Of a DNA stretch of 39,709 bases, positions 1,299 through 11,969 are shown one piece after another (the stretch's first letter is position 1; each line of letters begins with the position of its first letter). The notes below the pieces were generated by a model that did not search any database, was not told the DNA's origin, and saw nothing but the letters and a program-made list of their open reading frames with translations. The stretch is taken from NCBI GenBank assembly GCA_016650015.1, contig JAENWV010000003.1, positions 1-39,709 on the forward strand, in the 5' to 3' direction. Position numbers and translations under genes: made by a program. The stretch is from Thermoleophilia bacterium. Lineage in GTDB: Bacteria; Actinomycetota; Thermoleophilia; BMS3ABIN01.

Positions 1299-1889
1299 AT
1301 GGCAAATACGGAAGAAACAGTGGTGAGAATGAACTTGCTTCGCAGACATAAGCAAACCGCTGGCGCGATGGCAGCGGACATCACCTCTCAGTTCGATGAA
1401 GTCTATCGTGCTTACCTGAGGCCAGTATATGCCTTCGTTGCATTCCGGGTCGGCAATCGTGCCGCCGCGGAGGATATCACCGCTCAGGTGTTCGAGAAGG
1501 CCTGGCGCGGTTATCCCAGGTTCGACCCGCGCAAGGCGGCGATATCAACCTGGCTGTTCACGATAGCCAGAAACAGCCTGACCGACCACTATCGCAGCGC
1601 CGGCAGAAAAACCGATGAAGTCGAGCTTCCCGATGATCTGGGCGCCGGGGCTGAATCAGACCCCGTTCCCCGGCTTGAAGCCCTGGAGCTGCGGCGCGAG
1701 CTTAATGCGGCGCTTACCAGCCTGGAACCGCGGGAGCTGGAGATCGTGTCACTGAAATTCGGTGGCGCCATGACGAACCGCGACATCAGCACACTCTTGC
1801 AGATTTCTGAATCCAATGTTGGCACCATCCTCTACCGGTCTCTCAAGAAAATGAAAACCCGAATTGAGGGCGGGATCAAAAATGACTGA
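1299..1889 (+). CDS. ECF-family RNA polymerase sigma-70 factor
   Basis: Region 2 (AEDITAQVFEKAW...STWLFTIARN) and region 4 HTH (LEPRELEIVSLKF...DISTLLQISESNVGTILYRSLKKM). Confidence 0.93.
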   Translation: MANTEETVVRMNLLRRHKQTAGAMAADITSQFDEVYRAYLRPVYAFVAFRVGNRAAAEDITAQVFEKAWRGYPRFDPRKAAISTWLFTIARNSLTDHYRSAGRKTDEVELPDDLGAGAESDPVPRLEALELRRELNAALTSLEPRELEIVSLKFGGAMTNRDISTLLQISESNVGTILYRSLKKMKTRIEGGIKND

Positions 1890-3204
1890 TGACAGAGAAC
1901 AACAGGAACTAATTGACCTGATCGAACGGCTGCTCGCCGGCGAAACCGTCGCAGCGGCAGGCGATCGCGAGGAAGAACTGGAAAAGCTTCTGGCTATCGC
2001 GGCGGAACTCAATGAGCGAAGGCCGGAACCGTCAGCTGAGTTCGAGGAAAGGCTCGAAGCCAGGATGGCTGGGTTGAAAACCGCTACGGCCGTAACGAGC
2101 GATGATACTGCAGACGCGTCCCCCGGAGACGGCGTTGCGGCTCCCGGTGCGGCAACCGGAACGTCAATCGACGAGAAGAGCTGGTTGCGTGCATGGCTCT
2201 CCATGCCGCGGCTTGCCGCCGTGGCGGCCGCGCTGGTCATCGGGCTCGGCGTGGTCGGCATGGGCGGAGCCATTATCCGTGGCGGCTACCAGGGCAAAAC
2301 AGCTACTGTATCAGATGTGGCCAGCGATACCGGGACCCCTGCTGATGACGTAAAGACCCTGGAAAATGCCACGGGGCAGTCGGCTGCCGGGCGCTCCGGG
2401 GAAATCGCCGCCGGCGACACCGCGGGTTATGCCGGTTCGCCCCCCGGTGGTTCCGCCGACTCGGGCAGCACCGCAGGCATATCCGGGGTAGATACCGTGA
2501 CGCCGCTGCCTTCCACCCAGCGAATCATCCAGAGCGCCGACTACCAGGTCGAGGTGGCGCAGGGTGAATTCAACGACAAGTACTCGCAGATTTCGGCTAT
2601 CGCCGCGAAGTATGGCGGTTATGTGGTATCCGGCGATACGCGCTCCAGCGGCGATGAGCTCAAGCGTGGCAGCATCACCATCCGCGTCGCCAGCGGCAAC
2701 GACAACTTCACCAAGGCCCAGGCCGATCTCGAGGGACTCGGCAACGTGACCTCCAGGAAAGTATCCGGCCAGGATGTCACCGAAGAATACGTGGACCTGC
2801 AAAGCCGGCTGCGTAACGCCGAGGCCCAGGAAACCCAGATGCTGGAGCTGATGAAAAGGGCGCAGACCATCGAGGAGATACTTACGGTGCAGTCGCGCCT
2901 GGCGGAGATCCAGTCCCAGATCGAGCAGATCAAGGGCCGCATGAAATACACGGAGTCACGCACTGACTTCGCCACCATCACTGTGGACCTGCGCGAGACG
3001 AAGGAAGGAGTCAGCGAGACTGAGAGCGTTGGCACCAACTGGGGTTTCATCGACTCGCTAAAATACGCCGGCTGGCTGGCGGTTCAGACGCTGAACTTCG
3101 TCATCGTAGCGCTTGCGGTTATCGTTCCGCTGACCTTTATGGGCGGCGGTCTGGCTATTCTGTTCTACCGCCTGGCACAATGGCGGCGGAACCGAAACAA
3201 GTAG
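1882..3204 (+). CDS. Membrane protein with a putative N-terminal anti-sigma region and a DUF4349 domain
   Basis: ATG 1882 overlaps the ECF stop (ATGACTGA). Contains RPEPSAEFEERL, a TM helix, a G/S/T/A linker, DUF4349-like motifs (GGYV, GQDVTEEYVDLQSRL, SRTDFATITV) and a C-terminal TM. Confidence 0.75.
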   Translation: MTDDREQQELIDLIERLLAGETVAAAGDREEELEKLLAIAAELNERRPEPSAEFEERLEARMAGLKTATAVTSDDTADASPGDGVAAPGAATGTSIDEKSWLRAWLSMPRLAAVAAALVIGLGVVGMGGAIIRGGYQGKTATVSDVASDTGTPADDVKTLENATGQSAAGRSGEIAAGDTAGYAGSPPGGSADSGSTAGISGVDTVTPLPSTQRIIQSADYQVEVAQGEFNDKYSQISAIAAKYGGYVVSGDTRSSGDELKRGSITIRVASGNDNFTKAQADLEGLGNVTSRKVSGQDVTEEYVDLQSRLRNAEAQETQMLELMKRAQTIEEILTVQSRLAEIQSQIEQIKGRMKYTESRTDFATITVDLRETKEGVSETESVGTNWGFIDSLKYAGWLAVQTLNFVIVALAVIVPLTFMGGGLAILFYRLAQWRRNRNK

Positions 3205-3518: not shown

Positions 3519-5633
3519 ATGATAACTCTGTTTGGCCTGCTTTCGCTGGCATCGACTGGCATCGCCTTGATTATGGGGACCCTGGTGATCTCCCGGAATC
3601 ATCGGGAACCGGTCAACCGGATCTTCTTTGCCCTATGCCTGGCGATCGCCTACTGGTCCTTTACCAAGTATGAGCACCGCATAGCCGGCGAATATGACGA
3701 AGCCCTTTTCTGGATCCACATATCGTTCGTCTGGGCGCTGCCCAGCGCCATGCTGCTGCACTTCGTCCTGGTCTATACAGGCAACGAGCGTTTTCTCCAG
3801 AAGAAATGGCCCTTCATGCTGCTGTATGGCCCGTCGGTGATCATCGCGGTTCTGACTATCGTCAGCGATGACTATTCCGGGCTACCCAAGATGAGACCGT
3901 GGGGCTGGTCCATCGAACCTCTGCATGGCCGCCTCACTATCTTTAGCTATTTTTACATATCTTTACTCACCTTTTCAGCGTTGCTGATCTGCTTGCGCTT
4001 TTTTTTGAAACAGGATGATCCTCGAAAGCGAATTCAGTCAGGTCTTACGCTTGCCGGCATCAGTGTCTATGCCATAGCTCCGGCACTGAGTTACATCCTG
4101 CTGCCGTTGCTCAAAATAAGAATCCCCGATATCAGCTCTGTCACCTTCGCAGTGGGGGTCGGCGGCATCATCGGCTACGGGATCTGGAAGTACGATCTGC
4201 TCTCGATGACCCCTGCCGACGCCGCCGAAAAAATCATCTCAACAATGTCCGACGCTTTGCTGCTGATTGGCACCAGTGGCGAAATCAAGAATATCAACAA
4301 CGCGGCCCTGGACCTTCTCGGCTACGAACAGGCAGAAATCCTGGGCATGTCGGCGGAAAAAATCTTTCCCGATGGCTGGCTGAAGGAATGCATCCTCAGC
4401 CGCGAGGGAACCAGCGGCAGCATCGAGGGCGTCAGCGAAATCGAAACAATCGTTCTGACCAGGTCGGGCGAGAAAACGCCGGTCTCCCTTTCCAGCTCCA
4501 AACTTCATAACCAGCGCAAACAGCTGGTCGGAACCGTCTGTATCGCCCGCAATATCAGCGAGCGCAAACGCGCCGAGGACCTGATCAAAATGCAGAGCGA
4601 AGGTCTGATTTCCAGAAACGCCGAGCTGACGGCGCTTTACGAGATCTCAAACGTAGTCCGCAACAGCCTTGACCTTGACCTGATGCTGCGGCAGGCGCTG
4701 GACACGATAACCAGCCTGTCTGTATTCAACATCGAGTATAAGGGTGGCATTTTCACGGTCGAGGGCGAAACGCTGCGACTGTTGGCGAGTCTGCATCATG
4801 CAGATAATTTCCTGCGGGCCCATGATGGAATAAAGCTTGGTGACTGCCTCTGCGGCCAGGCGGCCCGAAGCGGCGAGATCATCGTATCATTGAATGCCCG
4901 GGAGGAAGACAGGCATACGAAAGATTATCCTGAAATCAGTGATCACGGGCATGTGATCGTACCGCTCAAAGCCATGGAAAAAGTCACCGGTGTCCTCTAT
5001 CTTTATCTGCCGGCGAACGCTGAAATCGATAATCGGCAGCTTAAGCTGCTGGAGACGATCGCTGCCGAGCTGGGCATCGCCATCGAGAACGCCCGCCTCT
5101 ACACAGAGACCCGGACCTTGTCGCTACACGACCCGCTGACCGGCCTCGCCAACCGGCGACTGATGGCGCTGGAGCTGGACAAGGCCCTCGCGCGCGCCAA
5201 GCGCACGGGCAAGCCCTTCTCGCTGGTCATGGCGGATATCGACCTTTTCAAAAACTACAACGACCTCTACGGGCATGCAGCCGGCGACGAAATTCTGGCC
5301 GGGATAGCAAAATTGATACTTGAAGAAATTCGCCGCATCGATCTTGGGGCGCGCTTTGGCGGCGAGGAATTTCTACTGATACTACCGGACACGGACCTGG
5401 ATGAAGCTGTCGAGGTCGCTGAACGCATACGCTGTAAGGCTGCCGCAACCGAGTTCACCTGCTCCGCAACCTTGAAAACATCCGGCATCACGATCAGTCT
5501 GGGTGTAGCGACCTGGGACGACAGTATCGGCAGCGAAGACATATTGGTCGCCAGGGCCGATACGGCGCTATACATGGCGAAAAACAAGGGTCGAAACCGG
5601 GTTGAGAGCTGGAAGCGGATGAACATAACCTGA
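3519..5633 (+). CDS. Membrane-bound diguanylate cyclase (7TM HisKA_7TM-like + PAS + GAF + GGDEF)
   Basis: About 7 TM helices, PAS (INNAALDLLGY...IARNISERK), GAF, then HDPLTGLANRR, DIDLFKNYNDLYGH, I-site RxxD (RRID), GGEEF and AKNKGRNR. Confidence 0.93.
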   Translation: MITLFGLLSLASTGIALIMGTLVISRNHREPVNRIFFALCLAIAYWSFTKYEHRIAGEYDEALFWIHISFVWALPSAMLLHFVLVYTGNERFLQKKWPFMLLYGPSVIIAVLTIVSDDYSGLPKMRPWGWSIEPLHGRLTIFSYFYISLLTFSALLICLRFFLKQDDPRKRIQSGLTLAGISVYAIAPALSYILLPLLKIRIPDISSVTFAVGVGGIIGYGIWKYDLLSMTPADAAEKIISTMSDALLLIGTSGEIKNINNAALDLLGYEQAEILGMSAEKIFPDGWLKECILSREGTSGSIEGVSEIETIVLTRSGEKTPVSLSSSKLHNQRKQLVGTVCIARNISERKRAEDLIKMQSEGLISRNAELTALYEISNVVRNSLDLDLMLRQALDTITSLSVFNIEYKGGIFTVEGETLRLLASLHHADNFLRAHDGIKLGDCLCGQAARSGEIIVSLNAREEDRHTKDYPEISDHGHVIVPLKAMEKVTGVLYLYLPANAEIDNRQLKLLETIAAELGIAIENARLYTETRTLSLHDPLTGLANRRLMALELDKALARAKRTGKPFSLVMADIDLFKNYNDLYGHAAGDEILAGIAKLILEEIRRIDLGARFGGEEFLLILPDTDLDEAVEVAERIRCKAAATEFTCSATLKTSGITISLGVATWDDSIGSEDILVARADTALYMAKNKGRNRVESWKRMNIT

Positions 5634-5683
5634 AATTCAGACTAACCGGTTGCCGACGCACCCGAGGCCAAAAGGGAACTCGA

Positions 5684-7159
5684 TCAGAATGCTGTTTCGA
5701 TAACTCCGCCGGCCATCAGGATCTGATCATCATAGATCACCGCCGACTGCCCGGGCGCGATACCGTGGACCGGCTGGTCGAGTTCCAGGCGCCATGAGCC
5801 CCGGAAGTCTTCCACAATGCGGCCGGGAACAGCCGGAGCGTTATACCTGGGCTGGATCATCAGGCTGATGCCGAGCAATTCATCGGCCGGGACGAAACTG
5901 TTTACCTGTCCGATCACCAGTGTCGACACCGCCAGCTCTGCGCGGCTTCCCGCCACCACCAGATTCTCTTCCGGAACCGTCCGCAAAACATACAGGGGTT
6001 CCGGGGCGCTGACGCCAAGACCGTGCCGCTGGCCTACCGTGTAGTCGATAAAGCCTCCGTGTGATCCAAGCCGGTCGCCAGCGGCATCGACGATATCCCC
6101 GGCTCCGGGAAGCTCCACGGCGCGACTGCGCAGGAAGCGGCGATAATCGTCGTCGGGAATGAAACAGACCTCCTGGCTCTCCGGCCGGTTGTGGGCGGCG
6201 ATTCCTGCCTCACGGGCCAGATTACGGCTGTCATCCTTGGACAATTCCCCCAGGGGGAAATCAAGCCGCTCCAGCAATGCGGGCTTGATGCCCCAAAGCA
6301 TGTATGACTGGTCCTTTGCCTGATCGGCGCCGCGGACGATCAGGCGGCCATCACCACCCGACTGCCGCAGCCGGACATAATGGCCGGTGGCCACTTGGGC
6401 GGCACCCAGCCTGTCGGCCAGAAGAATCAGCTCGTGGAAACGGAAGCGGCCATTGCAGCGCGCGCAGGGGTTAGGCGTCCGCCCGGCCATGTATTCCCCG
6501 ACGAAGTCGTCCACGACCACCGCAGCGAACGTCTCCGTGTAGTCGACCGTCAGGTGGGGCAGGCCCAGGCCATGGCAGACCTCGCGAGCGCCACGGATGG
6601 CCTCGGGAGAACAACAGCTGGGAGATTCAACATCTTCGCAGGATGGATCGCTCCAGAGGCGCATCGTGACGCCGACAACATCGCGGCCGGCGTTTCGTTC
6701 GAGCAGGCAGGCGGTGGAGCTGTCGACGCCACCGCTCATGGCGACGAGCATGCTATTTTCATGGATCTCTTTCGCCTTGGGGAAGGTGCCGCGCCCGATG
6801 GCGTCCTCCAGGGCTGCATGCAGGGACTCGACGGCGAAGAACGCGGCTTTTCGGATCGATTCGCCGCCACGTTCCGAGTCACCACTCAATGCCGCCTCTA
6901 TCGTCGCGGACGGCAAGCGAGCCGCTTCCTGCCAGCTCCTGCCGGTTATTATTTCGGTGATCAGGCTGCCGGCGGCGATGGCCGCGCTCGAACCAGATGC
7001 CTGAAAACGGGCTTCGGCCAGATTGCCGGCATCAAAGTTGATGAAAAATTTTATGACAACGCCACAGCCGGGATCGCCGGCCCCGCCACGTCCATCAGCG
7101 CCGGGAAGCTCTCCGGCGTTTCTGGGGTTATGGAAATGATCGAGGAGCAGTGATGTCAT
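5684..7159 (-). CDS. mnmA: tRNA 2-thiouridine(34) synthase MnmA with an N-terminal IscU/NifU-like domain
   Basis: MnmA motifs AMSGGVDSS, TPNPCARCN, ATGHY, KDQSY, SQEVCF, YTVGQRHGLG, APGQSAV. The first ~120 aa are NifU_N-like (LDHFHNPRNAG, GDPGCG). Confidence 0.92.
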   Translation of the reverse strand: MTSLLLDHFHNPRNAGELPGADGRGGAGDPGCGVVIKFFINFDAGNLAEARFQASGSSAAIAAGSLITEIITGRSWQEAARLPSATIEAALSGDSERGGESIRKAAFFAVESLHAALEDAIGRGTFPKAKEIHENSMLVAMSGGVDSSTACLLERNAGRDVVGVTMRLWSDPSCEDVESPSCCSPEAIRGAREVCHGLGLPHLTVDYTETFAAVVVDDFVGEYMAGRTPNPCARCNGRFRFHELILLADRLGAAQVATGHYVRLRQSGGDGRLIVRGADQAKDQSYMLWGIKPALLERLDFPLGELSKDDSRNLAREAGIAAHNRPESQEVCFIPDDDYRRFLRSRAVELPGAGDIVDAAGDRLGSHGGFIDYTVGQRHGLGVSAPEPLYVLRTVPEENLVVAGSRAELAVSTLVIGQVNSFVPADELLGISLMIQPRYNAPAVPGRIVEDFRGSWRLELDQPVHGIAPGQSAVIYDDQILMAGGVIETAF

Positions 7160-7193
7160 GAATCCATGATAACTCTATACGACAGCAGGCAAA
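7160..7193 (-). promoter_or_regulatory. Candidate sigma-A promoter giving a leaderless mnmA transcript
   Basis: Minus strand TTGCCT-N15-TATCAT-ggattc-ATG: the -10 lies 6 nt before the start codon and there is no SD sequence. Confidence 0.5.
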
Positions 7194-7225
7194 AGAAATG
7201 GCCGCCCCCTTAAGGAGCGGCCATT
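7191..7225 (-). terminator. Intrinsic terminator after the thioredoxin-fold lipoprotein gene
   Basis: Minus strand AATGGCCGCTCC...GGGGCGGCCATT hairpin followed by TCTTTT. Confidence 0.75.
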
Positions 7226-7278
7226 GAATATATTCCTATTGAAATTCCGTTGCGGGAAAACCCATCCGCTTTTGCTTG

Positions 7279-7920
7279 TTACCTGACCGTGCCGGTGCCG
7301 CTCTCCGTTCTGATGCCGGTACTGGTGCCGGAGCTGCCAGTTGTATTCGTGCTGGTCCCGCCGCCACTATTACTGCTGCCGCTGCTTGAGCTGCTGCTGC
7401 CGCTGCAACTTCCCGTGGCCTCGCAAATACCCTGTTCGATCGACTTGGAATCAACAAAGCCGGACCAGGCGCGCTGCACCTGCGCCTCCTTGTTGATGAT
7501 GACGACCGTAGGCGTTGTCGAGACTTTGAGAATGATCGACAGATCGCCGAACTTCTGACCGTCCGTATAAAGGTAATCGTAGAAGTCTACCTGGCCGCGG
7601 AATTTGTTCTGCAACGACATCACCGAAGAGCGAACCTGGTTATCATCGTAAGGTCCGCTTATATAAAAGGTGACGACGATCGGCCGTCGCGATTCGATCG
7701 AGCTCTTAAAATCCTTGGGAGACAGTTCGCCAGGAGTTATGACCTGTCCGATGAGGTCTTCCGGTTTGCCGGTGCTGGCGCTTCCCGAGCCCGACTTGCT
7801 GGTTTTGGAGGTCTTGGTCGGTGTAGTGGCCGGTGCTCCCGAGTCACCACAGCCGGTAAATATAAAAGCCACAAGCGCTACTATGAGCACTGTGGCTGTA
7901 AGCTTCAGAATTTTGGTCAT
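7279..7920 (-). CDS. Predicted lipoprotein with a thioredoxin-like fold lacking CXXC and a Ser/Gly/Thr tail
   Basis: Signal peptide and lipobox FTGC. RPIVVTFY and VSTTPTVVIINKEAQVQRAWSG resemble the thioredoxin beta-strand and cis-Pro loop. I prefer ATG 7920 because the track start (7953) lies within the 6S RNA. Confidence 0.65.
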   Translation of the reverse strand: MTKILKLTATVLIVALVAFIFTGCGDSGAPATTPTKTSKTSKSGSGSASTGKPEDLIGQVITPGELSPKDFKSSIESRRPIVVTFYISGPYDDNQVRSSVMSLQNKFRGQVDFYDYLYTDGQKFGDLSIILKVSTTPTVVIINKEAQVQRAWSGFVDSKSIEQGICEATGSCSGSSSSSSGSSNSGGGTSTNTTGSSGTSTGIRTESGTGTVR

Positions 7921-7943
7921 CCGCCGCCTTCTTGTTGCAAAAT

Positions 7944-8099
7944 AAAGCTCCACCTTGCCGTCTCCGCTTGTTTATTGAACCTGCTCTAGCAGGTGGGTGC
8001 CCGCTCCCCAGCTACCCTTAAGCAGTTGGGAAAGACTAAGCTCCCGTACTCAATATGTTGGCTCAATAAAGTTACGAATCACAAACAAGGTCGAGCTTT
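7944..8099 (-). ncRNA. ssrS: 6S RNA (SsrS)
   Basis: 156-nt rod with closing stem AAAGCTCGACCTTG / CAAGGTGGAGCTTT. Contains 6S-like blocks TTGAGCCAACAT, GTACGGGAGC and GGGCACCCACCTGC...GCAGGTTCAA. Located downstream of aspS, like B. subtilis bsrA. Confidence 0.85.
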
Positions 8100-8104
8100 G
8101 ATTA

Positions 8105-8134
8105 ATAATATCATACGCCTTTCTTTTTCGGCAA
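8105..8134 (-). promoter_or_regulatory. Sigma-A promoter of the 6S RNA
   Basis: TTGCCG-N18-TATTAT with an extended -10 TG; the -10 ends about 5 nt before the RNA 5' stem. Confidence 0.7.
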
Positions 8135-8210
8135 TAGCCAAAATAATCCTTCCGAGTGGCTTTGAAGCAATTTGTCAAGACCCCGGCTCGGCTATCAGCA
8201 ATAATCCCCG

Positions 8211-9959
8211 TTATTGCCGGATTTTGAGCTCTTTTAGCTGCCGCGGATCAACGATTGCCGGAGCGCCGGTGAGCGGACAGCCGCCACTCTGTGTCTTGGG
8301 AAATGCTATCACATCCCTGATGGTGGAAAGACCCGCCATCAGCATGACCAGGCGATCGAGGCCGAAAGCCAGCCCGCCGTGGGGCGGCGCTCCATATTTG
8401 AGAGCCTCCAGCAGGAAACCGAAATCCCGTTCCATCTGGTGGTCCTCGTGGCCGAGAATGGCGAGTATCCGCCGTTGCAGTTCCGGCTTGTGGATACGCA
8501 GACCACCGCTGGCGATCTCCACGCCGTTGAGAACCAGGTCATAGAGGCTGCCACGAACCTTGAGCGGCTCGTCCTCGAGAAAAGCGACCGTCTCCGCGCT
8601 GGGCAGTGTAAAAGGATGATGTTCGGCGACGATCTGGCCACTTTCTGCGTCCAGTTTAAACATGGGAAAATCCGTCACCCAGAGGAAGCTCCAGCCGGGC
8701 TCGACCAGTTCCAGCTCGGTGGCCAGGCGAGGCCGCAGGACGCCCAGGACCTCCACAGCCACGTCGACGGTGTCGGCGACGAAAAATACGATGTCGCCCG
8801 CTTCGGCCGCGGTTGCATCCAGGACCTGTGACAGTTCCTCCCGCGAGAGAAACTTGGCGATCGGCGACTGCACCTCCAGGCCTTCCTTGATAATCAGGTA
8901 TGCGAGCCCTTTGGCGCCATGGGAAAGCGCGAAGTCGGTATGTTCGTCTATTTCCCGGCGCGTAAAACGCCCGGCTCCTGGCGCCCGGATTGCCCGCACC
9001 GTGCCACCATCGGCTAGCGCCCGGGAAAACACGGCGAACTCCGAGCCGCGGAAGATATCGGAAGCGTCGACGATAGGAAGGCCGAAACGCAGGTCTGGTT
9101 TGTCGGAGCCGTACCTGAGAATCGCCTCGTCGTAGGTCATGACGGGGAAGGGTTTGTCGAGCGCGACGCCAAGCACTTCGTCGAAGAGAACAAGCATCAA
9201 ATCCTCGAGCAACCCCATGATCCCAGCCTCCGACATGAAGGACATCTCTATGTCCACCTGGGTGTGTTCGGGTTGCCGGTCGGCGCGCAGGTCCTCATCC
9301 CTGAACGCGTGCGCGAACTGGTAATAGCGGTCGAGCCCGGAGATCATCAGCAGTTGCTTGAAGAGCTGCGGCGACTGCGGCAGGGCGTAGAATTTTTTCG
9401 GTTGCAACCGCGACGGCACCAGGAAATCCCGGGCGCCTTCAGGCGTGCTCTTGGTGAGCACGGGTGTCTCCACCTCGGTGAAATTATTATTATCCAGAAA
9501 TTTTCGGGCGCTGCGGGAGACGCGGTGGCGCAACAGCAGGTTGTCGAGCATCTCCTCGCGGCGCAGGTCGATGTAGCGGTATTTGAGGCGCAGGTTGTCG
9601 TCCACATCGCCACGCTCCTCGACGCTGAACGGTGGCGTCTCGGAACGGTTGAGCACTTCGACGGCGGCGACGTTTATCTCGACCTCGCCGGTGGCCAGGT
9701 CCGGATTGACCGTTTCCGCCGGGCGGGGAGCCACTTTGCCCTTTATCTGGAGGACATCCTCCGGACGCAGCGAGTGGCCGATGGTATGGACTTCACCGGA
9801 ACGTTTGGGATCGAAGACGATCTGCACCAGGCCACTGACATCTCGAAGATCGACGAATATCAGCCCGCCGTGATCGCGCCGGCGATGGACCCAGCCGCAC
9901 AACGTTACGTCACGGTCGAGATCGTCCTTTTTTAGTTTTCCGCAGTAGTCGGTACGCAT
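8211..9959 (-). CDS. aspS: Aspartate--tRNA ligase (possibly non-discriminating)
   Basis: [63 protein letters not shown]. The His in RDHGG is typical of non-discriminating AspRS. Confidence 0.98.
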
Positions 9960-10078
9960 TATTCTTGTTTCTATTCTCGTTTCGTTGTGGGGGCCATGTT
10001 TTTCTAATTTCGGCTCTTAGTAAACCTGGGGGGCTACCCAAAAGTTTCTTAAACAGCCATCTCTTCAAGTAAGGTTTT

Positions 10079-11329
10079 TCAAAACCGTTCTGACAGGTTT
10101 TGCTCCAGGCCATCCAGCGCCACCGACTCCTGCTCGCCGGAACCCATATCGCGGACAGTGGCCGCGCCTGACGCCAGTTCGTCCTCGCCGATGATAACAG
10201 CAAAACGCGCGTTGAGGCGGTTCGCCTGCTTCATCTGTCCTTTCGCCTTTCGGCCGGCGTAATCCGTATCGGCGGAAATTCCCAAGCCGCGTAGCCGGTG
10301 CAGCGCCTGCATGACCCGCGGCCGCGCTTCTTCAGCCAAAACCATGATAAAGACGTCGATGCCCGGCGGCGCCGGCGTGATCCCGGCCGATTCAAGAGCC
10401 AGGACAATGCGCTCGAGACCGGTACCAAAACCGGTTGCCGGTGCCGGCTGGCCGCCGATCTCCTCGACAAGATTATCATACCGTCCGCCTCCCCCGATCC
10501 CTTTTTGGGCCCCGAGACGGGCGCACTCGTATTCAAAAGTCGTTCGCGTGTAATAATCAAAGCCGCGCACGAGCGTACCGTCGACCCGGTAGCTTCGCCT
10601 GAAAAGGTCGAGGTAACCCCTTACCTCGTCGAAATGTTTCTGGCAGGAAGGGCAGAGATTATCAACCAGTTTGGGCGCCTCGCCCAGCAGTGAAATACAA
10701 TTTTCGTTCTTGCAGTCGAAAACACGCAGCGGATTCAGCTTTGCCCGCTCCTGGCAGTCACGGCAGAGAGCATCACCAACGCCTTCCAGATAGAGCTTCA
10801 GCCGTTCCAGATATGGTGGCCGGCATTCCCTGTCGCCCATGCTGCTGAGCCTGAGCTCCACATCCGGAACGCCCAGCACCTCGTACAGTTGCGACAGCAT
10901 CATGATCATTTCCGCGTCGAGGGCGGCATCGCCGGAACCGATGGCCTCGGCCCCCAGCTGGTAGTGCTCCCGGTAACGACCGGCCTGGGGCCGTTCGAAA
11001 CGATACATGCGTTCTAAATACCAGAGCTTCACCGGTTGGGGCAGTTTGTGCATCCCGTGCTGCACGTAGGCTCGCACTACGGGGGCGGTGCCCTCGGGTT
11101 TCAAGGTCAGGCTGCGGCCGCCTTTGTCCTCGAAGCTGTACATCTCTTTTCTGACGATATCCGAAGAAGTGCCAACGCCCCTGACGAATAATTCTGTGTC
11201 CTCAAACGCCGGTGTGTTGATGTGTTCGTAGGCCGCCGTGCGAAATATGGCGGCGGCGACGTCAATAACCTGTTCGCGGAGAGCCTGCGCCGCCGGCAGA
11301 ACGTCGTATGTTCCTTTGGGACCCTGCAT
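10079..11329 (-). CDS. hisS: Histidine--tRNA ligase
   Basis: Start MQGPKGTYD at 11329 (the track extension overlaps the upstream gene). KEMYSFEDKG, RFERPQAGRYRE, LVRGFDYY, GGGGRYD. Confidence 0.97.
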   Translation of the reverse strand: MQGPKGTYDVLPAAQALREQVIDVAAAIFRTAAYEHINTPAFEDTELFVRGVGTSSDIVRKEMYSFEDKGGRSLTLKPEGTAPVVRAYVQHGMHKLPQPVKLWYLERMYRFERPQAGRYREHYQLGAEAIGSGDAALDAEMIMMLSQLYEVLGVPDVELRLSSMGDRECRPPYLERLKLYLEGVGDALCRDCQERAKLNPLRVFDCKNENCISLLGEAPKLVDNLCPSCQKHFDEVRGYLDLFRRSYRVDGTLVRGFDYYTRTTFEYECARLGAQKGIGGGGRYDNLVEEIGGQPAPATGFGTGLERIVLALESAGITPAPPGIDVFIMVLAEEARPRVMQALHRLRGLGISADTDYAGRKAKGQMKQANRLNARFAVIIGEDELASGAATVRDMGSGEQESVALDGLEQNLSERF

Positions 11330-11330
11330 T

Positions 11331-11969
11331 TTACCAGCCCAGATCGGTGAGAAAGGGGTTGTCCTCCCTCTCGGCCGCCAGAGTTGTACTGTTCCCGTGC
11401 CCGGGATAGACCCTGGTATCCGGTGGGAAGTGCAGAATAAGGTTCTTGACCGCCGCAGCCAGCTCATCGAATGACCCACCAGGTAAATCAGTGCGGCCTA
11501 CTGAGCCATGAAAAAGCAGGTCGCCGGTAAACAGGCAATCAGCGACAAAAAAAGTGAGTGATCCCGGCGAATGACCACGCGTGGCGATTATCTTGACGTC
11601 AATGCCATCGATTGAGACCGTCTCGCCGCCCTCGAGCAGGCGATCGACCTTGCAGCTTGAAAAACCGGGCATGCCGGGGAAGAACTGAAATTTTTCCGGG
11701 GCTGCCAGAACCATCTCCACCTCACGGCTGGCATAGACCTCAGCACCGGTAGATTCCGCCAGTCCGGCCACGCCGCCGATATGATCCGGGTGTCCGTGCG
11801 TGATGAAGATCGCCGAACACCGGGCTCCAGCTTCCCTGAAAGCCGTGAGGACCACTTCCGGATCACCGCCGGGATCCACGGCAAAACCGGCACCCGAGGC
11901 GGAATCGTGAACTATATAGCAGTTGGCCTGAAGCGGACCCACCGCCCTGGTTATGATTTCGATGCTGAT
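11331..11969 (-). CDS. MBL-fold metallo-hydrolase (glyoxalase II / YcbL-like)
   Basis: GPLQANCY, THGHPDHIGG, GHSPGS, FTGDLLF, GRTDLPGG, PGHG. Start uncertain: GTG 11942 or non-canonical ATC at 11963/11969. Confidence 0.9.
   Translation of the reverse strand: MSIEIITRAVGPLQANCYIVHDSASGAGFAVDPGGDPEVVLTAFREAGARCSAIFITHGHPDHIGGVAGLAESTGAEVYASREVEMVLAAPEKFQFFPGMPGFSSCKVDRLLEGGETVSIDGIDVKIIATRGHSPGSLTFFVADCLFTGDLLFHGSVGRTDLPGGSFDELAAAVKNLILHFPPDTRVYPGHGNSTTLAAEREDNPFLTDLGW

Follow-up and report, generated by a model that had tools for sequence, protein, structure and literature searches.

A C-type MnmA fused to a degenerate IscU-like domain in Thermoleophilia: a possible persulfide relay through a single cysteine

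What could a domain of the iron-sulfur scaffold fold be doing at the head of a tRNA-thiolating enzyme, once it has lost most of the residues with which such scaffolds hold their clusters? The question is raised by one gene in a stretch of 39,709 nucleotides (the window) from a Thermoleophilia bacterium (contig JAENWV010000003.1 of assembly GCA_016650015.1). In this gene an IscU/NifU-like domain with a single ligand cysteine, Cys32, precedes a complete MnmA, the enzyme that 2-thiolates U34 of tRNA. The fusion is genuine and conserved, and as a variant of a known enzyme it is undescribed. Its N-terminal domain could be an IscU-derived module for sulfur acceptance or docking, from which persulfide sulfur would reach MnmA by way of Cys32, a reading held here with slightly less than even confidence. 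The parts of the gene are the following:

5684..7159, minus strand: whole fused gene, made up of the IscU-like domain, a linker and a C-type MnmA (491 amino acids and a stop codon; open reading frame and profile searches)
6785..7159, minus strand: N-terminal domain of the IscU/NifU fold, residues 1-125, in a degenerate one-cysteine form (Pfam NifU_N, Foldseek)
7064..7066, minus strand: TGT codon of Cys32, which corresponds to Cys1 of U-type proteins (Cys37 of E. coli IscU, Cys41 of B. subtilis SufU; read from the codon)
6764..6784, minus strand: linker, residues 126-132, joining the last helix of the IscU-like domain to strand 1 of MnmA (AlphaFold2 model)
6155..6751, minus strand: PP-loop (HUP) catalytic domain of MnmA, residues 137-335 (Pfam PF03054, tRNA_Me_trans, 206.8 bits, E 3.7e-61)
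6719..6736, minus strand: PP-loop SGGVDS, residues 142-147, for ATP binding and U34 adenylation (columns invariant in the homologue alignment)
6611..6616, minus strand: CC motif, Cys182-Cys183, within SCCS at residues 181-184 (121 of 121 homologues)
6455..6466, minus strand: CxxC motif, Cys232 and Cys235 of PNPCARC, presumed [4Fe-4S] ligands (aligned with DxxC of E. coli)
6164..6166, minus strand: Cys332 of QEVC, presumed to be the third cluster ligand (in the column of the second catalytic cysteine of E. coli MnmA)
5948..6103, minus strand: PRC-barrel of MnmA, residues 353-404 (Pfam)
5699..5923, minus strand: C-terminal beta-barrel of MnmA, residues 413-487 (Pfam)

A preliminary description of this DNA, made from the letters alone, had reported one uninterrupted frame at this place, and the frame is indeed open on the minus strand for all 491 residues. 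The two Pfam families whose presence in one protein had been proposed as a check, NifU_N and tRNA_Me_trans, both match it. No indel in the region 5600-7260 is listed among the contigs of four other sequencing runs: the X13 contig (10,127 nt) spans the region with seven substitutions and no gaps, the X4 contig (3,207 nt) spans it with three substitutions and no gaps, and contigs of runs X5 and X3 also cross the domain junction. The stop or frameshift between the domains that would have undone the fusion is absent, and the same open frame occurs in all 24 species genomes of the window family, where the N-terminal domain stands in frames of 371-591 amino acids (the 371-residue case is on a 5.2-kb contig). 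The fused N-terminal domain is under constraint as judged by its dN/dS ratio of 0.31, the ratio for the MnmA part being 0.22, in a comparison with the 93% identical orthologue L009 that rests on a single pair with small counts.

To judge from its sequence, the gene product is a complete MnmA of the C-type. It exceeds both NCBIfam equivalog cut-offs for MnmA (NF001138, 341.9 vs 284; TIGR00420, 271.7 vs 236.95). In an alignment to E. coli MnmA (PDB 2DER), the DxxC motif is matched by Cys232 and Cys235 and the second catalytic cysteine by Cys332, and all five cysteines of the CC-CxxC-C pattern are present in each of the 121 aligned homologues. In the accessible text of Shigi 2020 (PMC7025502), this pattern is the defining signature of the C-type, [4Fe-4S]-dependent MnmA, and the fusion is assigned to the type because it carries the signature. 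The cluster is presumably bound by Cys232, Cys235 and Cys332; clusters of C-type MnmA have one open iron site, according to the part of a review that covers them. The CARC and QEVC motifs had been read correctly in the preliminary description, but the SCCS motif, there called extra, is the ordinary CC pair of the signature. Two other cysteines of the MnmA body are less widely shared. Among the 121 homologues, the position of Cys151 (6705-6707, minus strand), in the helix that follows the PP-loop, has 69 Cys and 50 Ala; that of Cys195 (6573-6575, minus strand) has 70 Cys and 50 Ala, and a Cys stands there in E. coli MnmA too.

The N-terminal domain matches Pfam NifU_N over residues 5-119 (70.3 bits, E 2.3e-19, cut-off 22). 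It stays well short of the equivalog cut-offs for each kind of U-type protein: TIGR03419 (NifU_clost) 74.3 vs 187.9, TIGR01999 (IscU) 55.9 vs 192.4 and TIGR01994 (SufU) 43.7 vs 92.5. Its three ligand motifs, which translation confirms as first reported, are GDPGC32GVV, with Val34 in place of Asp; GSSAAIA, with Ser57 in place of Cys2; and SIRKAA, with Ala105 in place of Cys3. When the fused domains are aligned with the canonical NifU of sister genomes, the ligand pattern of the window is C-V-S-I-K-A, as compared with C-D-C-K-H-C in the canonical protein. Asp, Cys2, His, Cys3, the equivalent of Lys103 (Ile102 here) and the LPP motif have all been lost, while F-x-N-P-R-N, the Cys-Gly turn and Gly56 are retained. 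As both the ligand and the score tests failed, the domain is placed within the NifU_N fold family and outside the IscU/NifU scaffold and SufU equivalogs. The earlier statement that it no longer builds clusters is upheld by the same evidence, one of three cysteines being left and Asp being lost.

The relatives of the fusion have kept different sets of ligands. When the 115 homologues with an N-terminal extension of more than 100 amino acids are classed by ligand pattern, six have three cysteines (CDCK.C), 44 have lost Cys3 (CDCKHA), 63 have one cysteine, and two are gapped at Cys1 in deposited entries that start later. Among the 63 one-cysteine forms, Asp is replaced by Ala in 53 and by Val in nine, Cys2 by Ser in 50 and Cys3 by Ala in 58; the equivalent of Lys103 is Leu in 26 and Ile in 16, and LPP is lost, while F-x-N-P-R-N and Gly62 are kept. 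All 24 genomes of the window family have a one-cysteine form with the Cys1-Gly pair retained and with no Asp or His ligand, which by this alignment is the most degenerate form seen. The 12 loci sampled from eight other families keep Cys1, Asp and Cys2, with Cys3 variable (CDC.HG, CDC.HA, CDCKHA, CDCHHA, CDCRSC, CDCAAC and CDCNGC). No order of the losses is claimed from the tree of the MnmA sequences, made with FastTree only, because P0074, which has three cysteines, and locus L058 lie on long branches in it.

Cys1, in contrast to the other ligands, is never substituted. Its column in the full alignment of 121 sequences contains 113 Cys, eight gaps and no other residue, and it is Cys in a further 29 of 29 and 12 of 12 loci. 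Of the two patterns that the preliminary description expected from such an alignment, conservation of Cys32 is found both here and throughout the window family; loss of both other cysteines is found in the 63 one-cysteine forms and fails in the relatives with two or three. Gly33 and Gly56 are invariant to the same degree as Cys32. A search of representative proteins with the N-terminal domain gave 3,742 matches at E <=0.001. The best 150 of these are mostly short IscU-like proteins or fragments and include three one-cysteine fragments (P0122, P0123 and P0125), the MAFFT patterns of this set being unreliable. P0124 (482 amino acids) and P0127 (472 amino acids) each match the domain in three separate stretches, which suggests repeated NifU_N-like modules.

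The fusion is present in most families of the class, as far as reading frames in assembled genomes can tell. PF01592 and the MnmA families occur together in 108 of the 120 best database homologues listed, whose names indicate metagenome-assembled genomes (MAGs) of Thermoleophilia and Rubrobacteraceae; the databases label fused homologues plain MnmA. The class was sampled with 91 genomes, each of them at least 90% complete apart from that of the window, and the criterion was a match to the N-terminal domain in an open frame of at least 470 amino acids. Among the matches listed, such a frame was found in 16 of 16 for family f1, at least 13 of 15 for f2, at least 5 of 15 for f5, 6 of 8 for f6, 6 of 6 for f7, and 1 of 1 for each of f8, f9 and f10; it was found in 0 or 1 of 15 for f3 and 0 or 1 of 13 for f4. 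The N-terminal domain and the PP-loop share one frame in all 12 loci fetched from the eight other families. In f3, a canonical NifU_N match (G080:C71:4794-5156, E 1.9e-46) lies in an open frame of 691 amino acids, which may be another NifU fusion or a long GC-rich frame. Locus L058 was considered as a fusion with an adjacent desulfurase and was rejected, as it has four separate genes, iscR-iscS-nifU-mnmA. No description of a NifU/IscU-MnmA fusion was found in the literature covered, including the accessible main text of PMC13066941, PMC7025502 and PMC5372745; subscription papers and supplements were outside this scope, and sequences of this kind may be present in Supplemental Fig. S1 of PMC7025502.

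An AlphaFold2 model built with 108 fused sequences has a mean pLDDT of 95.0 and a pTM of 0.92, and the blocks at residues 121-140, around the linker, reach a pLDDT of 97-98. The model suggests that the IscU-like and MnmA parts are held in a fixed packing. In Foldseek comparisons, the MnmA body resembles 2DET_A (TMt 0.90, rmsd 2.4), and the N-terminal domain resembles IscU chains (7C8O, 4EB5_C and 3LVL_A; TMt 0.79-0.86) more than SufU chains (about 0.6). The predicted complex of the full fusion with an IscS of the same genus has an ipSAE of 0.54 (runs 0.59, 0.50 and 0.54), the best of three controls scoring 0.00; the runs share at least 78% of their contacts, and the partner has a pLDDT of at least 85. 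This result is graded as weak support. Of 80 solved complexes, 58 reached the mark for a complex, as did two of 110 mismatched pairs, and scores of 0.60 or less were seen in only seven of those 80 and in both of the passing mismatches. Moreover, because solved IscS-IscU complexes exist, the score may reflect likeness only.

What is known of U-type proteins makes it possible to propose how Cys32 might act. In the E. coli IscS-IscU structure, as far as the text of PMC2854127 at hand describes it, Cys37 is the most exposed cysteine of IscU, lies nearest to the IscS Cys328 loop and is proposed to be the first sulfur acceptor; a Cys328-Cys37 disulfide in A. vinelandii is cited there. The same text has IscU docking to IscS through its N-terminus, its beta2 and beta3 loops and Lys103, and the K103E change abolishing binding. 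SufU is a U-type protein that serves in sulfur transfer only, by way of Cys41 of a Cys41-Asp43-Cys66-Cys128 site (PMC8918507, accessible part). By analogy we infer a sulfur path through Cys32 to the cluster site, which would run as follows: 1) a cysteine desulfurase, possibly the IscS of an iscRSU operon or an enzyme of the TIGR01977 type, forms a persulfide; 2) the IscU-like domain would supply the docking face for this desulfurase; 3) Cys32 would accept the sulfur, as Cys41 does in SufU; 4) from Cys32 the sulfur would move on, without leaving the polypeptide, to the active site of MnmA; 5) there it would presumably be loaded onto the free iron of the [4Fe-4S] cluster that Cys232, Cys235 and Cys332 hold; and 6) the oxygen of the adenylated U34 would be replaced by this sulfur.

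Such a relay is supported by the fact that Cys1 is never substituted while the remaining ligands decay. It is also supported by the presence of an IscS-type gene next to the fusion in relatives. Among soil-metagenome loci of the two-cysteine CDCKHA form, 17 of 37 were looked at, and in all 17 a gene of the IscS/NifS type, on the strand of the fusion, ends immediately upstream of it; the proteins encoded by these genes are 41-45% identical to the IscS of sister genomes. In two of the 12 loci from other families (f9 and f10), an IscS-like gene is directly upstream.

Several observations weigh against the relay. No desulfurase gene adjoins the fusion in the window family and, as the preliminary description had noted, none is found within the window. 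The iscRSU-type IscS, its NifU and the neighbouring tatD were not found in the window's assembly, which is 85% complete; their absence is read as a gap in the assembly. Contacts with IscS are partly gone, as Leu or Ile takes the place of Lys103 in 42 of the 63 one-cysteine forms and the Tyr3 equivalent is lost. Seven deposited homologues are without the Cys1 stretch (P0033, P0044, P0055, P0065, P0067, P0068 and P0070; P0071, a fragment on a 1,044-nt contig, is left out of this tally). P0033, on a 1,420-nt contig, is probably cut at the contig end, and the other six look like late start calls. Finally, a relay is not obligatory, since according to the accessible text of PMC7025502 either IscS or SufS suffices for the Thermus C-type enzyme in vitro.

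A more detailed and more tentative form of the proposal, possible rather than probable, is that the domain is a metal-free, single-cysteine persulfide carrier hard-wired to a [4Fe-4S] thiolase. It would have evolved from an Fe-S scaffold by stepwise loss, through forms with three, two and one cysteines, independently of SufU, with Cys1 kept as the sulfur entry point of U-type proteins. The carrier might compete with free NifU for the docking face of IscS and in this way govern how sulfur is divided between tRNA and cluster assembly, and the persulfide on Cys32 might load the open iron of MnmA directly.

Could the domain serve the cluster of MnmA itself rather than bring the substrate sulfur? 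The forms with three or two cysteines might be a private scaffold or a receiver of the cluster, and Cys32 of the one-cysteine forms might be a removable fourth ligand or cap protecting the open iron, or a handle that takes the cluster from canonical NifU. Most families keep Cys1, Asp and Cys2, His and Cys3 being present in some (the 12 loci of other families and the 44 CDCKHA homologues) and could bind metal or a cluster; the open iron site and the rigid packing predicted for the domain on MnmA would suit such a role. In the window family, however, all 24 genomes encode a domain with one cysteine and no Asp or His, which alone cannot hold a cluster, and 21 of the 24 have a canonical NifU alongside. 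Care of the cluster is therefore regarded as unlikely, though it survives best among the alternatives.

Alternatively, the domain might be a structural remnant, kept for the folding or dimerisation of MnmA or for tRNA binding, with Cys32 and its flanking glycines forming a turn without any sulfur chemistry. The invariance of Gly33 and Gly56, the partial loss of IscS-contact residues, the tight predicted packing and the direct transfer from desulfurase to MnmA known elsewhere all fit this explanation, but a structural cysteine should somewhere have drifted to Ser or Ala, as Cys2 did in 50 and Cys3 in 58 of the 63 one-cysteine forms and Cys1 never did, and Cys37 of IscU is exposed on the surface; a purely structural role thus seems rather improbable. 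That an assembly or sequencing error merged neighbouring nifU and mnmA genes, which do exist as separate adjacent genes in Firmicutes-type loci, is refuted by the contigs of the four other runs, by the same open frame in the 24 genomes of the window family and the 12 loci of other families, and by the 108 fused homologues, and can be dismissed. Explanations other than these share what probability remains.

How does the proposed relay compare with known systems? The MnmA part agrees with TtMnmA of Thermus thermophilus in its CC-CxxC-C signature, its PP-loop and its three-domain body, and presumably performs the same adenylation and sulfur insertion at U34. TtMnmA stands alone, in the text of PMC7025502 that was available, and receives its sulfur directly from IscS or SufS in vitro, whereas the fusion adds an IscU-fold N-terminal domain of about 125 residues. 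This domain shares with IscU and clostridial-type NifU (PDB 7C8M, 4EB5_C and 3LVL_A) the fold, F-x-N-P-R-N, the Cys1-Gly turn and the G-x-x-A-A-I-A helix start. Unlike them, it forms part of an enzyme by fusion, has no Cys2, Cys3, Asp, His, Lys103 or LPP, and coexists with a canonical NifU in sister genomes. SufU of B. subtilis is a parallel to the proposed role, being a U-type fold turned carrier whose acceptor Cys41 (C-x-D) is at the position of Cys32; according to the accessible part of PMC8918507, SufU has all four of its zinc ligands and acts together with a type II SufS through ligand swapping, while the domain described here has lost three of the four.

In E. coli, sulfur passes along the relay IscS-TusA-TusBCD-TusE-MnmA. 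The docking of TusA on IscS is described in PMC2854127, as far as its accessible text goes. This relay and the YrvO-MnmA pair of B. subtilis, as outlined in part of a review, resemble the role proposed for the fusion in that each gives MnmA a private persulfide route of the IscS type, and a possible consequence common to such routes is competition with IscU for the desulfurase. Unlike the Tus relay, the adaptor of the fusion has no Tus homology, is a covalent part of MnmA and is derived from a scaffold; no Tus family is among the Pfam and NCBIfam matches of the fused frame. The earlier suggestion that the domain replaces a Tus-type relay is not supported, as the Thermus C-type enzyme takes sulfur directly in vitro and the genome of the window encodes two TusA-family proteins, their genes lying elsewhere in that genome. 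One of its contigs, C154 (L098 1-6317), has on one strand genes for an Rrf2-type regulator, a CysK-like O-acetylserine sulfhydrylase, a TusA-family protein, a small ThiS/MoaD-like frame, an E1 of the MoeB/ThiF type, a JAMM/MPN protease and a LarE-like PP-loop protein. With names taken from translations and two family matches, this cluster looks like a protein-thiocarboxylate sulfur-carrier system.

How sulfur is delivered to C-type MnmA and to the related [4Fe-4S] thiolases is still open, and it is debated which cysteine of IscU first accepts the persulfide. The lineage described here lets natural variation take both questions apart: one and the same enzyme carries a three-, two- or one-cysteine domain, which in every case is attached and retains Cys1, and iscS may be adjacent or not. 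If the relay is true, it would show how a scaffold can turn into a carrier of sulfur; if the domain is inert, the fusion is a mere detail of annotation in entries labelled plain MnmA.

Sister genomes show what accompanies the fusion. Four of them have the order metG-tatD-iscR-iscS-nifU with a canonical NifU, and the standalone NifU of sister genome G054 scores 201.3 against the TIGR03419 cut-off of 187.9. A standalone NifU match is present in 21 of the 24 genomes of the window family, and the three without it are the least complete (85%, 78% and 75%). Because a canonical NifU coexists with it in these 21 genomes, the fused copy is taken to be a specialised paralogue, and the holding of clusters is assigned to the separate NifU. 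In the window's own genome, a SufB/D fragment lies at a contig end, and a desulfurase of the TIGR01977 type (430.6 vs 377) is encoded on contig C70 (L001 1495-2640). The latter is a protein of 381 amino acids with the active-site motif RAGIHCAP, the only clear cysteine desulfurase found in the assembly and a possible sulfur donor to the fusion.

The genes and signals next to the fusion in the window are as follows:

10079-11479, minus strand: hisS (conserved upstream synteny, block 7279..11479)
8211-9959, minus strand: aspS (conserved upstream synteny)
7279-7953, minus strand: gene for a predicted lipoprotein of 224 amino acids, without a Pfam match (conserved upstream synteny)
7197..7225, minus strand: terminator-like hairpin of 13 pairs followed by a T run, between the lipoprotein gene and the ATG of the fusion (consensus match)

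The order in the window is hisS, aspS, the lipoprotein gene, the hairpin and the fusion, and a gene for a GGDEF sensor converges from the other side. Since the terminator-like hairpin precedes its ATG, the fusion probably has its own transcription start. The hisS-aspS block is upstream of the fusion in 11 of the 12 loci from other families. Further upstream in the soil loci, aspS is present in 12 of 17, and a homologue of the lipoprotein gene stands between aspS and iscS in one. By its gene order, the locus of the window looks like the arrangement of these relatives minus iscS. The genes iscR, iscS, nifU and mnmA are separate and adjacent in Firmicutes-type loci, in one Latescibacterota locus and in one actinomycete MAG; this separate arrangement is likely the ancestral state, as gene order suggests, and a gene cluster iscS-nifU-mnmA is the most likely origin of the fusion.

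The lipoprotein gene lies between aspS and the fusion in the relatives L009-L014, L131 and L194 as well. The look-alikes of its product, by language model and by structure, are proteins of the thioredoxin fold, with SGPY at the usual position of CxxC; this is a lead only. At 1299-3204 on the plus strand of the window, a gene for a sigma factor of the ECF type is followed by an overlapping gene for a DUF4349 protein of 446 amino acids, and the two may be a sigma/anti-sigma-like pair.

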